Below are positions 822 to 3,208 of a stretch of DNA of 64,000 bases, piece by piece. The translations under genes were made by a program, and so were the position numbers. The notes below the pieces were generated by a model. The model worked only from the letters and a program-made list of their open reading frames with translations. It made no database searches and had not been told where the DNA came from. The stretch lies in assembly GCA_040751795.1 (NCBI GenBank), contig JBFMHR010000001.1, positions 96,001 through 160,000 of the forward strand, in the 5' to 3' direction. This DNA comes from Thermoplasmatota archaeon (GTDB taxonomy: Archaea > Thermoplasmatota > Thermoplasmata > UBA10834). The number at the start of each line of letters is the position of its first letter. Within the stretch, counting starts at the first letter, position 1.

Positions 822-1364
822 TCACTTCGGGCGGAGGATGAGGTCGACGAGGGTGGAGAACGCGTTCTCGACGTTGTATCCGGTCTTGGCCGACGTCAGC
901 ATCGCTGGCGCCCCCTGCTTCATCGAGAATATCTCCAGGTCCTGCGTCGACACGCGCATGTCGTCCTTGAGGTCGCACTTGTTGCCCAGGAAGACTATAG
1001 GGACCTCGCCCGTGGTCGAAGTCATGGCCTTGACCCAGTACCTCAGCTCGCCGAGGCTCTCCTTGCTCGTGACGTCGCACACCGCGAGCGCACCCTCGGC
1101 GCCGTAGAAGTACGCCTCGCGCAGGACCTCCCTGAAGCTCGGCTGGCCCATGATGTCCCAGACCAGGAGCATGATCTTCAACTTCTCGCCGGTCTTCGGG
1201 TCGGTGTAATCTATCTCCTTCTTCGTCACCTTGGTCCCGATCGTCGCGATGTACTTGTCATCGAATACGTCCATCACGAACCTGCGGATGAGGCTGGTCT
1301 TGCCGACGCCCACATCGCCGACGAGACATATCTTGAGTTTCTTGACCTCGCCACTTTCGACCAA
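822..1364 (-). CDS. Small GTPase, Ras superfamily (Rab-like)
   Basis: G1 GDVGVGKTS, G2 ATIG, G3 WDIMGQ, G4 NKCD, G5 SAK. Start placed at TTG 1364 after AGGAG. The ORF-track extension to 1493 is probably non-coding. Confidence 0.9.
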   Translation of the reverse strand: MVESGEVKKLKICLVGDVGVGKTSLIRRFVMDVFDDKYIATIGTKVTKKEIDYTDPKTGEKLKIMLLVWDIMGQPSFREVLREAYFYGAEGALAVCDVTSKESLGELRYWVKAMTSTTGEVPIVFLGNKCDLKDDMRVSTQDLEIFSMKQGAPAMLTSAKTGYNVENAFSTLVDLILRPK

Positions 1365-1591
1365 TGGCCCAACAACTCCTTTGGCTCGTGATGTATCGCA
1401 TAGAGGTCTAAAAAACGTTTGCACATGATGAATGTCGACAGAAAACGTCGAGCCATACTGATACACATCGCGCGATGCGCGCCTCAATCGCACCGATTCG
1501 CTGCATTGTTATCAGAAAATGGAAAATGAAGCAAAGGCAAATAATACTCTAATGTGCTTACATGGTCAGAGATGCGTCATGGAAAGAACGC

Positions 1592-1614
1592 GGGACCCGA
1601 TGCAATCGGGTCCC
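1592..1614 (+). promoter_or_regulatory. Perfect 10-bp hairpin in the putative leader of the small-peptide operon
   Basis: GGGACCCGAT-GCA-ATCGGGTCCC. Confidence 0.5.
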
Positions 1615-1686
1615 TGGTTGGGGAAGACGCATCAGGAAACAAGGAAACGTCAGACCCCAGACGAATGAGATAGGAGGAAAACGCAT

Positions 1687-1764
1687 ATGTCCTGCGGAAA
1701 GTGCGGAAAGAAGACCAAGAAGAAGGCAGTGAAGAAGAAGGCAGCGAAGAAGAAGAAGAAGTAA
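1687..1764 (+). CDS. 25-aa Lys-rich CxxC peptide MSCGKCGKKTKKKAVKKKAAKKKKK
   Basis: AGGAGG RBS at about 1672-1677, ATG 1687, TAA 1762-1764. All 15 Lys codons are AAG, matching host codon bias. Confidence 0.7.
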   Translation: MSCGKCGKKTKKKAVKKKAAKKKKK

Positions 1765-1802
1765 TTCTTCAGGATTGGAATCTGGAGCTGGAGGTGGATC
1801 CC

Positions 1803-1892
1803 GTGCCTGCCAAGAAGAAGAAATGCAGCAAGCCGAAGAAGGCCGAAGACAGCTGCTGGGGCAAGGAGATCCGGGCCGACAGATCACGTTGA
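1803..1892 (+). CDS. 29-aa basic peptide MPAKKKKCSKPKKAEDSCWGKEIRADRSR
   Basis: GGAGGTG RBS at about 1790-1796, GTG 1803, TGA 1890-1892. Confidence 0.6.
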   Translation: MPAKKKKCSKPKKAEDSCWGKEIRADRSR

Positions 1893-1903
1893 TTCTGACC
1901 GAA

Positions 1904-1965
1904 TGAGATTCTGGACGGCGCTACAGACCGTTCGAGTCTCATCAAACTTCTTCCATCTTTGCTTC
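1904..1965 (+). terminator. Imperfect hairpin plus pyrimidine tract after the peptide pair
   Basis: ATGAGATTCTGGACGG...CCGTTCGAGTCTCAT followed by CTTCTTCCATCTTTGCTT. Confidence 0.45.
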
Positions 1966-2050
1966 TGCGATCCATCCCGCCGTGGGCACCTCTCAGCCGC
2001 CCCATACGAAACGAATTAAGGGGACCCATCATTCTCCCCTAGGCATCGAC

Positions 2051-3208
2051 ATGGCGCAGGACAGACGGCTGCTGTGGGTGATCAGTTATCACCACGCGTG
2101 CAACGACGGGACCCTCATGGTCCTCGTCGCAGTCCTCCCGATACTCATCCAGGAGATGGACCTCTCGTACTCCGACGTCGGGATACTCGGGCTCGGCCTC
2201 ATCATAACGGTGGTGGTTCAGTACTTCGTGGGCAAGGCCTCCGACAGGCACTTCTCGAGGTACCTCCTCGAGGTCGGGGCCGGGCTCATGGCCCTCTCGT
2301 TCCTCCTCATCCCGCTCGTCTCGGACTTCGTCGGCCTGTTCATAGTCGTGATCGCGATGAGGGTGGGGGCCAGCTTCTACCACCCGATCGGCGTCTCGTG
2401 GATAACCAGGGAGTACCAGGGGCCGTACCTCGACACCTCCCTCGGAATCCAGAGCGGCGTCGGGAACCTTGGCGTGATCACCGCACTGGGCACCTCGGGC
2501 TTCCTCGGCGAGTACCTCGGGTGGAAGGCCCCGTGCATCCTCTGGGCCGCGCTGAACCTGGTCGCCATCGCGCTGGGCGCCTTCATGACGAGAGGGCACG
2601 AGCCGCCCCGCCCTTCCGCAGGGGACAGCGTGAGGATACCGGTGATGTCCACCTTCCGCAAGATAGCCATCATAGCGTTCCCCGTGGCGGTCGGCGGCGC
2701 ATTCTACCAGGTCACGACTTACTTCGGCCCCATCAGCCTCACGCAGGAACACGGCTGGAGCACGGGGGATGCAGACCTCGTCTTCGCCGTATGGATAGGC
2801 GTCGGGATGCTGACCTCATACCTGTTCGGGAGGGTGAGCGGCCGGTTCGGCCGCGCGAACATCCTGAGGTGGGGGTATGCGACCGCCTGCGTCGGCGCGG
2901 TCATCCTGGCATTCGTCGCGGCATGGTACCTCATCGTCCCCACCCTCGTCGTGTTCGGGGCGCTCTTCTTCCTGACGTACCCCGCCCTGTTCGGCCTTGC
3001 GACCCTCTCCACCGAGCCGGCGGAGCGGGGGGCGACGTTCGGCATCCTCTTCGGGTTCCAGCTCGGCGGGGGCGCGGTGGTCGTGGCTGCGTGCGGGGCC
3101 CTGTCAGATGCGTTCCAGGACCCATCGTACTCGTTCCTCGTCATCGCTGGCCTTGCTGCGGCATCCGTCGTCGCGCTCATGGGTAGCGACCTGGGCAGGG
3201 ACGAATGA
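2051..3208 (+). CDS. MFS transporter
   Basis: About 12 hydrophobic segments, GKASDRH motif A, FYHPIG (Fsr-like). Confidence 0.9.
   Translation: MAQDRRLLWVISYHHACNDGTLMVLVAVLPILIQEMDLSYSDVGILGLGLIITVVVQYFVGKASDRHFSRYLLEVGAGLMALSFLLIPLVSDFVGLFIVVIAMRVGASFYHPIGVSWITREYQGPYLDTSLGIQSGVGNLGVITALGTSGFLGEYLGWKAPCILWAALNLVAIALGAFMTRGHEPPRPSAGDSVRIPVMSTFRKIAIIAFPVAVGGAFYQVTTYFGPISLTQEHGWSTGDADLVFAVWIGVGMLTSYLFGRVSGRFGRANILRWGYATACVGAVILAFVAAWYLIVPTLVVFGALFFLTYPALFGLATLSTEPAERGATFGILFGFQLGGGAVVVAACGALSDAFQDPSYSFLVIAGLAAASVVALMGSDLGRDE

Follow-up and report, generated by a model that had tools for sequence, protein, structure and literature searches.

The described proteins closest in composition to those reported here are the bacterial H1-like repeat proteins, namely the tail of AlgP, HC2 (PF07382), and the NCBIfam family NF038053. 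AlgP is presented in PMC9239181 as a bacterial DNA-binding protein whose KPAA-repeat tail is of H1-like composition. Among the Archaea, the Diaforarchaea are portrayed in PMC7613761 as having lost histones and as using idiosyncratic, lineage-specific nucleoid proteins, and one protein proposed there for this role is WP_019177984.1, from the histone-less Diaforarchaeon Methanomassiliicoccus luminyensis. Here we describe a micro-operon of two very short open reading frames (ORFs), ORF1 and ORF2, in a stretch of 64,000 nucleotides (nt) from a Thermoplasmatota archaeon (the window; positions 96,001 to 160,000 of contig JBFMHR010000001.1, assembly GCA_040751795.1; positions below are those of the window). 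Their Lys-rich products, of 25 and 29 amino acids (aa) in the window, may be free-standing polycations that bind nucleic acid.

ORF1 shares with the H1-like repeat proteins a low-complexity Lys/Ala/Pro composition and, in the form typical of one genus (g4), KKKPAKKKAA-type repeats, which vary between relatives from two to six copies. It differs from them in being archaeal and only 20-85 aa long, in having no globular or other domain, and in carrying an N-terminal CxxCG. Ribosomes also contain tiny polybasic proteins, eL41, bS22, and Thx, which sit in grooves of the rRNA. These resemble our ORFs in length (about 25-33 aa), in having more than half basic residues, and in usually being missed by gene callers; unlike them, ORF1 and ORF2 are rich in Lys rather than Arg, ORF1 varies in length, and ORF2 is absent from one genus. 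WP_019177984.1, compared here by its description only, is likewise small, basic, and Lys-rich, but it is described as a 74-aa protein with a predicted novel fold, bacterial orthologs, and a single-gene operon, whereas ORF1 and ORF2 are mostly 20-36 aa, low in complexity or a single helix, and bicistronic.

The unit lies in an intergenic stretch (1365-2050) that is bounded by one gene on the minus strand, up to 1364, and another on the plus strand, from 2051 onward; here GC content dips to 0.455-0.53 (200-base windows, 1301-1900) compared with about 0.60-0.70 in most flanking windows. Positions 1531-1967 are confirmed as a compact, independent two-cistron micro-operon, which consists of a promoter box, a leader of about 115 nt, the two ORFs, a 3′ hairpin, and a pyrimidine tract:

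1531..1546, plus strand: putative archaeal promoter, with a purine-rich BRE-like GCAAAGG (1531-1537) and a TATA-like AAATAATA (1539-1546)
1571..1633, plus strand: structured 5′ leader, with outer helix P1 and hairpin P2
1672..1677, plus strand: Shine-Dalgarno site AGGAGG of ORF1, 9 nt before the ATG
1687..1764, plus strand: ORF1, ATG start, 25 aa, MSCGKCGKKTKKKAVKKKAAKKKKK, with an N-terminal CxxCG knuckle and a poly-Lys tail
1790..1796, plus strand: Shine-Dalgarno site GGAGGTG of ORF2, 6 nt before the GTG
1803..1892, plus strand: ORF2, GTG start, 29 aa, (M)PAKKKKCSKPKKAEDSCWGKEIRADRSR, ending in GKEIRADRSR
1903..1942, plus strand: 3′ stem-loop after ORF2, an inverted repeat pairing 1903-1911 with 1934-1942
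1943..1967, plus strand: pyrimidine-rich tract CAAACTTCTTCCATCTTTGCTTCTG, the likely transcript end

The preliminary description of this DNA had listed a promoter-like stretch, a hairpin, two pairs of Shine-Dalgarno site and ORF, and a 3′ end, and all of these are present at or within a few bases of where it put them. Its proposal of a complete, separately promoted unit of two real small genes below gene-calling size has held up. It was also right about the length of ORF1, its CxxC, and its all-AAG lysines, but there are 14 lysines and not the 15 that it counted.

ORF1 of the window has a net charge of +14. No other ORF of 12-120 aa in the 2.05-megabase (Mb) assembly reaches 35% Lys, so ORF1 is not just one among many AAG-rich frames that arose by chance. 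That all 14 of its lysines are encoded by AAG was considered as a special signal and ruled out: The flanking genes, for a GTPase and a transporter, are equally biased, also in relatives of 47%-48% GC, so this is ordinary codon usage.

We searched 41 genomes, the window's own and those of 40 relatives, with the DNA of 1380-2050 (all genomes compared in this study are metagenome-assembled genomes [MAGs] of uncultured organisms) and obtained matches in 26, among them 22 out of 24 genomes of the same family, two out of three of the sister family, and one out of 13 from other families. The core of the matches is the ribosome-binding site and ORF1, at 72%-89% identity. We found an ORF1 homolog in all 15 loci fetched after DNA similarity and in all 48 family-type loci overall, which encode 33 distinct proteins of 20-85 aa. 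In these the N-terminus is kept as M-x-C-G/A-K-C-G-K-K and is followed by a Lys/Ala/Pro tail. Lys content is 45%-64% in 32 of the 33 distinct proteins and 32% in the other, a frameshifted form from locus L021, and net charges range from +11 to +47. CxxC occurs in 27 and is absent in six. Every one of the 48 loci has a Cys within the first four residues; the rule by which ORF1 was picked demanded this, and every locus nonetheless gave such an ORF. The arrangement AGGAGG-AAAA-N4-5-ATG is nearly invariant in the 15 loci and in 32 distinct leaders.

The pattern of substitution is that of a coding sequence. Among 12 distinct 45-nt N-terminal sequences, which are unbiased by the ORF1 pattern because their loci came from DNA similarity, the synonymous share of pairwise codon differences is 0.66 in the ORF1 frame and 0.06-0.36 in the five other frames. 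The variable columns of codons 2-14 are distributed 3/3/9 over the three codon positions. A gene on the minus strand, where a 109-aa frame is open at 1558-1887, is ruled out by the same frame-specific fractions. Tails differ in length because Lys/Ala/Pro units were gained in frame, up to KKKPAKKKAA(A) repeats; except in L021, the Lys run is followed at once by the stop codon. In L021 the C-terminal Lys run is frameshifted, giving a 72-aa ORF with unrelated sequence, which could be due to slippage or to an assembly error. This is the single such C-terminus among the 48 loci, and frame-breaking slippage in the AAG runs, which the preliminary description had named as grounds for doubting the gene, is otherwise not seen in them. 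The window's own ORF1 has no Pro and no regular repeat, only a 15-nt-spaced AAGAAGAAGGCAG(T/C)G. At 1693-1710 it contains an exact tandem, TGCGGAAAG TGCGGAAAG, encoding CGK-CGK; the CxxC may therefore stem from a 9-nt duplication.

By using a degenerate N-terminus pattern over one genome per species (185,579 species), we obtained 30 matching loci: 27 in MAGs labelled Thermoplasmata, Thermoplasmatota, or Methanobacteriota, one labelled Paceibacterota, and two from DPANN archaea. Within the class, the pattern (at most two mismatches) occurs in 38 of 401 genomes, the window's own and 400 others, and a reversed-pattern control in none. The positive genomes include 32 out of 45 in the window's own family, four out of eight in family f26, and one in family f33. 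Eight of the 13 pattern-negative family genomes were inspected, and all eight have variants (MACGKCG.., MDCGKCA.., MACGKKA.., MACAKK.., MAKCGKK..); the five outside that inspection are 55%-89% complete. The locus from the record labelled Candidatus Paceibacterota (L033) contains the whole GTPase/ORF1/ORF2 unit; it shares its ORF1 exactly and its ORF2 almost exactly with Thermoplasmata loci L008 and L029 and is probably a mis-binned archaeal contig.

ORF2 is Lys-rich in its N-terminal half and has a conserved C-terminal motif, GKE[IV]RAxxSR, within the consensus MAxKKxSKKAGKAxKKKxYYRGKEIRAxRSR. A homolog follows ORF1 in 30 of 43 loci (those from the DNA search of relatives plus those from the species-wide pattern scan), in most cases with a GGAGG-like site ∼6-9 nt upstream of the start. 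Relative to ORF1 it stands in frame 0, 1, or 2, varying by locus. A frameshift fusion of the two ORFs was ruled out on these varying frames and on ORF2's own ribosome-binding site; the occurrence of all three relative frames excludes a programmed-frameshift fusion. Changes in the last ten codons are mostly synonymous and include CGN-to-AGG exchanges, in both directions, for the final Arg. Most copies start with ATG and the window's copy with GTG. Two species of the window's genus (L003 and L007) have ACG at this position and retain the frame and the C-terminal motif; the ACG could be a near-cognate start or reflect a different mode of initiation.

In a six-frame profile search, exactly one copy of ORF2 was found in 31 out of 46 family genomes, the window's own counted. 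By genus, it occurs in 10 out of 11 genomes of g1, 18 out of 19 of g2, two out of three of g3, and none of the 12 of g4. In g4, which lacks ORF2, ORF1 is 40-85 aa long with a KKKPAKKKAA-repeat tail, and elsewhere it is 20-36 aa. In several g4-type loci (L009-L012 and others) a conserved block, cccacgggcaaggcgtgagggt, followed by a hairpin, lies ∼100-200 nt past ORF1 where ORF2 is missing; it could be an ORF2 remnant or a different 3′ element. In ORF2, only the window's genus has the Cys residues; the other genera have YY or EP at these positions.

Searching 1.84 billion representative proteins with the ORF2 profile gave 14 clusters at E ≤ 0.001, all of the same family and, where named, called "hypothetical protein." Several of them have long false N-terminal extensions through an alternative frame of ORF1. 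A frame of this kind is open in the window at 1701-1892 (63 aa, MRKEDQEEGSEEE...), running via the -1 frame of ORF1 into ORF2, and public gene calls of some relatives use such extended frames (P0008, P0011), which are likely mis-annotated forms of ORF2. AlphaFold2 with the ORF2 alignment predicts, at modest confidence, a single helix at residues 9-31 (mean pLDDT 68.9, pTM 0.22), a model too weak for a structure search, and the ESM Atlas returned for ORF2 unnamed clusters only, at 0.76-0.81, which is chance level. One candidate identity for ORF2 was tried and rejected. Tryglysin precursors, which belong to the ribosomally synthesized and post-translationally modified peptides (RiPPs), carry a conserved WGK core and are encoded next to a radical-SAM maturase. 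The corresponding profile (NF050036) scored 16.1 bits with ORF2 against a cut-off of 34, Trp occurs in just two of 20 aligned homologs, and the neighbouring genes encode the GTPase, a major facilitator superfamily (MFS) transporter, DUF1614, and an amidohydrolase.

Upstream of ORF1, the alignments show in most loci a conserved AAAG-N-CACTTATTATACA or GCAAATAATA box, ∼22-25 nt before a conserved GATGC(A/G)TC; no such box can be made out in L004-L006. The box would act as a BRE/TATA-like promoter, and with the spacing usual in archaea, transcription would begin near 1568-1572. Within its first ∼65 nt, the predicted RNA folds into an outer helix, GAUGYRUC/GAYGCAUC, that encloses a hairpin of variable sequence. 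In the window the outer helix P1 comprises 8 bp, GAUGCGUC (1571-1578) with GACGCAUC (1626-1633), and the hairpin P2 (1587-1619) has a perfect 10-bp core at 1592-1614 (10 pairs, seven of them G-C, and a loop of 3). The minimum free energy (MFE) of the window leader is -34.8 kcal/mol (z = -5.11). When 20 homologous leaders were folded, 11 had z ≤ -2.5 and the remaining nine ranged from -2.36 to +0.30. The architecture is the MFE fold in 28 of 32 distinct leaders, is not seen in L004-L006, and is partial in L022. In the MFE fold of the whole leader, the ribosome-binding site of ORF1 is unpaired.

Covariation was assessed on a sequence-only MAFFT alignment. P1 alone is 91.4% paired, with variation mostly to G-U on the RNA strand and two G-C compensations; this is weak support, as the paired percentage is reached by four out of 500 shuffles and the covariation measures by 44-59 out of 500. 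With the core of P2 added to P1, 75.8% of the cells are paired, compared with 17%-39% in slid controls, and there are 37 double changes compared with 23.6 ± 3.9 in shuffles (reached in none of the 500). No Rfam 15 family matches the leader at threshold; the best three score 17.4, 15.5, and 11.7 bits against gathering scores of 48, 50, and 45. The element was found nowhere else in the window's genome, and a role as a regulon signal was ruled out on the occurrence of the motif at this one locus. A scan for bacterial promoters and terminators did no more than find the hairpin at 1592-1614 again, on the minus strand, at the chance rate (one found, 1.1 expected).

The 3′ stem-loop has an MFE of -23.4 kcal/mol in the window and of -18.7 to -23.4 kcal/mol, at ∼40 nt, in loci of the same genus, where its stems covary (AUGAGA/UCUCAU, AUGAGG/CCUCAU, GUGAG/CUCAC). 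Past the inverted repeat the window reads CAAACTTCTTCCATCTTTGCTTCT. In same-genus loci CAAACUUCUUCC comes after the stem-loop, all aligned loci conserve a related pyrimidine tract, and low-GC relatives have plain T-runs at this position; the tract is a putative terminator.

RNA-library material covers the leader, ORF1, and ORF2 in pieces of about the predicted transcript size. Metatranscriptome contigs from three studies align to 1583-1787 (205 nt), 1583-1875 (293 nt), and 1605-1961 (373 nt, 16 of them additional nt on the 5′ side), and as they differ from the window at 7-19 positions, they come from relatives. The prediction that the unit is transcribed is borne out to this extent. Position 1583 is the first base covered by two of the contigs, each from a different study, which hints at a 5′ end weakly at best. 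No RNA contig at 85% likeness or more was found on 1348-1569 or 1977-2300, though contigs cannot show absence. One further contig, of 387 nt from RNA run X16, joins 1795 to 1928 and skips the stretch of ORF2; it may come from a relative without ORF2.

Taken as coding sequences, ORF1 and ORF2 are conserved and are very probably real, expressed protein genes. Neither gives a significant match in Pfam, NCBIfam, or the sequences of the PDB (in the last, none at E ≤ 10). Six ORF1 and ORF2 forms were looked up among ∼15 billion proteins: The exact ORF2 of the window and the exact 25-, 32-, 40-, and 85-aa forms of ORF1 are absent, a look-up that a protein called from a different start would escape. 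A HMMER protein search with the 40-aa form gave 219 word-sharing candidates, none at E ≤ 0.01. ORF1 thus seems to have been missed by gene callers. The string MSCGKCG is in none of ∼8.4 million full texts, and we found nothing on the ORF1/ORF2 family in the literature on small, lysine-rich, or H1-like archaeal proteins. Neither protein matches a family described in Pfam, NCBIfam, or the PDB sequences, and the leader matches no RNA family described in Rfam.

The unit is flanked by two genes that are also found beside it in relatives:

825..1364, minus strand: Ras/Roc-family small GTPase, 180 aa, TTG start, divergent from the micro-operon
2051..3208, plus strand: MFS transporter gene (Pfam MFS_1, E = 2.3e-41), syntenic downstream neighbour

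The first, called Rab-like in the preliminary description, is a member of the Ras superfamily (Pfam Ras, E = 2.7e-37, 128.3 bits against a cut-off of 21.6; Roc, E = 3.4e-28) in which the G1-G5 motifs are kept (GDVGVGKTS, WDIMGQ, GNKCD, TSAKTG). Its mean column identity across 23 orthologs is 84%, and it ends in ...LRPK, with neither a C-terminal Cys nor a basic tail. An ortholog (70%-97% identity) is divergent at the same place in all 43 Thermoplasmata-type loci. The ORF, its ribosome-binding site, and its synteny, for which the preliminary description had suggested a search of relatives, are all conserved. Ras-like GTPases occur in 233 of the 401 genomes of the class, with up to eight or more matches per genome; the window's own genome has five, and the closest paralog of the window's GTPase is 61% identical to it. 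The MFS gene, which probably lies outside the micro-operon, is downstream in 39 of the 43 loci (tblastn), and in several of them it starts >1 kb away, with an opposite-strand open frame between. DUF1614 and amidohydrolase genes complete the neighbourhood, and no ribosomal genes are nearby.

Comparable small ORFs occur outside the window's family:

L055:1094-1276: Cys-less poly-Lys ORF, 60 aa
L056, start at 436, minus strand: Cys-less poly-Lys ORF, 18 aa
L058, start at 849, minus strand: Cys-less poly-Lys ORF, 17 aa
L050-L054: mini-ORFs of families f26 and f33, 19-27 aa, beginning MSCGKCG or MSCAKCG, with a mixed Lys/Asp/Glu tail, e.g., MSCGKCGPKGEKKKDDKKKK
L037:1201-1245 and L028:1195-1239: DPANN mini-ORFs, 14 aa, MSCGKCG(T/P)K(R/K)KKKK, behind GAGAGGTGAT

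In two of the three sister-family genomes, the corresponding position next to an orthologous GTPase (61%-64% identity) is taken by a poly-Lys ORF, divergent from the GTPase gene. These ORFs, a 60-aa MAAKKKATKKK... and the 18-aa MPKKKKTKKAAKKKKRKR, are entirely without Cys; because they keep the poly-Lys and lose the Cys, charge is the persistent feature. The 17-aa Cys-less MAKKKVAKKKTAKKKKK comes from another family and has no GTPase nearby, and both it and the 18-aa ORF have T-run terminators downstream. The f26 and f33 mini-ORFs lie behind ATAGGAGGT and a short leader. At L050, which we checked with Pfam, the neighbours are a divergent gene for a 118-aa HTH_20 winged-helix (ArsR-like) regulator and a convergent EamA transporter gene; the regulator sequence is conserved in all five loci L050-L054, and the DNA fetched for them contains no tblastn match to the window's GTPase. 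In the two DPANN genomes, the TGA of the mini-ORF overlaps the ATG (ATGA) of a gene for a protein of 226 or 133 aa with a hydrophobic N-terminus, and a conserved 174-aa gene lies upstream; the mini-ORF looks like a translationally coupled upstream ORF, and no GTPase was found in the fetched DNA around it. At such short lengths, these mini-ORFs may be homologous or convergent.

As to function, we tentatively favour the reading that ORF1 and ORF2 are free-standing, H1-tail-like polycations that bind nucleic acid, to which we would give a little less than an even chance. High charge, a length-tolerant tail, a mostly kept Cys motif, a strong ribosome-binding site, and a promoter of their own are the behaviour of a charge-driven polyanion binder, comparable to H1 C-terminal tails, protamines, and bacterial H1-like repeat proteins, and not of an enzyme cofactor or a signal peptide. 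In this scheme, transcription would start near 1568-1583, downstream of the BRE/TATA-like box, and the 5′ end of the mRNA would fold into the helix-enclosed hairpin, probably an element for stability or for protein binding, with the ribosome-binding site left free. ORF1, a CxxCG knuckle with a Lys/Ala/Pro tail whose length appears to evolve by in-frame repeat gain, would most likely act by charge, coating, neutralising, or bridging nucleic acid, be it nucleoid DNA, RNA, or both. By pure inference, its Cys pair could link two peptides through one Zn ion or a disulfide, giving a two-tailed bridge. ORF2, predicted to be a basic helix of fixed length with a C-terminal motif, probably acts beside ORF1 on the same polyanion, and the two- to fourfold longer ORF1 tail in the genus without ORF2 would fit compensation by total charge.

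The H1 likeness of ORF1 is compositional only. ESM Atlas features place the 85-aa form at 0.91 to an HC2 H1-like cluster. Residues 3-13 match the first knuckle of Zn_ribbon_NUD below threshold (E = 0.086, 13.0 bits against a cut-off of 24.8). The window's genome, which is 92.8% complete, yielded neither a histone gene nor an MC1 gene. Polyphosphate was tried as a target by analogy with AlgP and set aside on weak evidence only, namely that a search of the same genome turned up neither PPK1 nor PPK2. The micro-operon that the preliminary description proposed is real, and the roles it attached to the peptides, protamine- or H1-tail-like, ribosome-associated, or metal- or redox-switched, are candidate roles.

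Several observations weigh against binding of nucleic acid as the function. The 85-aa form reaches only E = 0.057 and 13.7 bits (cut-off 80) with NF038053 (hist_H1_lk_Burk), the 25-aa form of the window does not match this profile, and PF07382 HC2 gave no match at E ≤ 10. The window's genome encodes one Alba and one HU-like protein, the latter near a contig end, so there is no chromatin gap to fill; an argument from the want of any known nucleoid protein was dropped on this account. The matches in this genome (G000) are as follows:

C34:220522-220704: Alba
C2:604-864: HU-like protein
C12:220251-220748: GTPase

Moreover, DNA is not singled out as the target, since a peptide of such charge would bind any polyanion, including rRNA, acidic lipids, and acidic proteins. 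The strict N-terminus of ORF1 and the C-terminal motif of ORF2 suggest a specific partner over bulk charge, and the f26 and f33 versions have Asp and Glu in the tail. The inverse relation between ORF2 presence and ORF1 tail length is suggestive only and gives no statistical support, because it probably reflects a single evolutionary event. The RNA contigs are assemblies from relatives that do not show strand, ends, or abundance, and their libraries can contain DNA. Finally, a polycation that binds nucleic acid leaves unexplained the synteny with the GTPase in 43 out of 43 loci and in the sister family.

ORF1 and ORF2 might instead be unrecognised, ribosome-associated small proteins lodged in rRNA grooves, which we consider unlikely. 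Their size (25-33 aa) and charge fit, as do the single copy per genome and the strong ribosome-binding sites; ORF2 in particular combines a fixed length with a conserved motif, as expected for a defined binding pocket. The structured leader may be a parallel to those of autoregulated ribosomal-protein operons, and two of 20 ORF2 homologs weakly match Ribosomal_L32p (E = 0.39). Apart from this match, however, no ribosomal family appears at E ≤ 10; a genome search with PF05162 (Ribosomal_L41) was uninformative, its controls falling below the cut-off too. The fourfold variation of the ORF1 tail and the genus-wide lack of ORF2 would be unusual for ribosomal proteins, and the locus is not near ribosomal genes.

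The synteny with the divergent GTPase is accounted for by one reading alone, in which the peptides work with this protein as a polybasic-plus-Cys membrane tether supplied in trans, as an effector, or as a regulator. We regard such a partnership as quite unlikely. The divergent arrangement persists in 43 of 43 loci and in two of three sister-family genomes despite the changed ORF sequence, and it extends through the order. The GTPase is unusually conserved and ends without a Cys or a basic tail, and none of the 48 family loci lacks a Cys within the first four residues of ORF1. PMC4915359 reports that archaeal Rab-like proteins have neither a prenylatable Cys nor a polybasic region, and membrane association via other proteins is proposed there. 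The Lys run beside a Cys, linked here to a tail-less Ras/Rab-like GTPase, resembles the hypervariable tails of eukaryotic Ras/Rab GTPases (K-Ras4B type); by contrast, ORF1 is a separate gene product, its Cys is N-terminal, and it has no CAAX box. Order-wide divergent synteny, a tail-less GTPase, and a Cys at residue 3 or 4 in 48 loci are compatible with the Cys-polylysine peptide, perhaps together with ORF2, being the missing membrane-targeting or regulatory module of the GTPase, supplied in trans, but we rate this specific version as slightly less likely still. The same low chance applies to the further step, in which such a module would be a forerunner, prokaryotic and still split, of the polybasic/Cys hypervariable tail that anchors Ras and Rab proteins in eukaryotes. 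Against any partnership with the GTPase, synteny inside one order can be plain inheritance, Ras-like GTPases far outnumber the ORF1 pattern (233 compared with 38 of 401 class genomes), the f26, f33, and DPANN MSCGKCG mini-ORFs have no GTPase in the fetched DNA, and the sister-family ORFs lack the Cys.

ORF1 might instead be primarily a metal-binding or redox peptide with a cationic tail, a role we hold to be just as improbable as work with the GTPase. The M-x-C-x-x-C motif binds Cu, Hg, or Zn in HMA metallochaperones, and C-x-x-C-G is shared with the knuckles of zinc ribbons and zinc hooks; the hook of Rad50 is a CxxC knuckle of this kind, and two half-sites could share one Zn. CxxC is the feature most widely shared among the small ORFs considered here (the family of the window, f1, together with f26, f33, and two DPANN genomes), a zinc-ribbon knuckle matches below threshold, and the f26 and f33 mini-ORFs are divergent from the ArsR-like HTH_20 regulator, with the EamA transporter gene next on the opposite strand. 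Yet CxxC is lost in six of the 33 distinct family proteins and absent from the syntenic sister-family ORFs. There is no HMA match in Pfam at E ≤ 10, and ORF1 is a 25-aa peptide rather than a ferredoxin-like domain of ∼70 aa. A zinc ribbon has two CxxC motifs per chain (four ligands), while ORF1 has one, which some members have lost; two thiols alone make weak, unspecific sites, and tail growth to 85 aa is left unexplained. As CxxC is not invariant and the ORF2 Cys residues are genus-specific, no metal or redox switch can be the function that the whole group shares. The metal- or redox-switched peptides of the preliminary description therefore fail as a general account, with CxxC in 27 of 33 proteins, none in the sister family, and Cys in ORF2 confined to one genus.

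It is very unlikely that the ORFs are regulatory leader peptides, in which ribosomes stalled at the 14 Lys codons would sense how much lysyl-tRNA (or polyamine) is available and control read-through into the transporter gene. Runs of a single codon type are typical of classical attenuation leaders, such as those of the his, trp, and phe operons. ORF1 resembles these in being a short ORF dominated by one codon upstream of other genes; an MFS transporter is downstream in 39 of 43 loci, and the 14-aa DPANN version ends in an ATGA overlap typical of translational coupling. Attenuation, however, has no need of amino acid conservation at the N-terminus of ORF1 or the C-terminus of ORF2, and tails of up to 85 aa are implausible for it. 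Unlike an attenuation leader, the unit has a conserved peptide, a second conserved ORF, a terminator-like end of its own, and no alternative hairpins overlapping the ORF: The conserved structure lies upstream of ORF1 without overlap, and a conserved hairpin and pyrimidine tract close the unit. Several loci have an opposite-strand open frame between ORF2 and the MFS gene, and the next gene is convergent in f26 and f33.

That these are not genes at all, but a conserved noncoding RNA, an opposite-strand gene, or a chance ORF in an AAG-rich spacer, is most improbable: AAG repeats are open in all frames on both strands (as in the 109-aa minus-strand frame), HMMER gave no protein homologs for the 40-aa form, and all six exact forms looked up are absent from the ∼15 billion proteins, but the synonymous fraction of 0.66 in the ORF1 frame exceeds all others (≤0.36, with 0.06-0.36 on the minus strand), the ribosome-binding site, ATG, and stop after the Lys run are invariant except for the L021 stop, the best Rfam score is 17.4 bits against a gathering score of 48, and relatives of ORF2 turn up only as C-terminal matches of the same family.

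The anatomy of the unit is unusual, combining a bicistronic pair of 20-36 aa, a CxxCG head, a conserved structured leader, and linkage to a Ras-like GTPase. It would rank among the smallest conserved archaeal protein genes known, as a lineage-wide operon of 20-36-aa polycations, complete from promoter to terminator, that standard gene callers have missed or mis-called. The peptides can be synthesized, and their function is hence directly testable. If they work together with the GTPase, the finding would bear on how small GTPases were targeted to membranes before eukaryotes. If they bind nucleic acid, they would provide a natural series for the effects of charge and valency in condensation (20-85 aa, with and without CxxC, with and without ORF2), and they would be a free-standing, H1-tail-like addition to the variable chromatin or RNA-binding repertoire of the histone-less Diaforarchaea.

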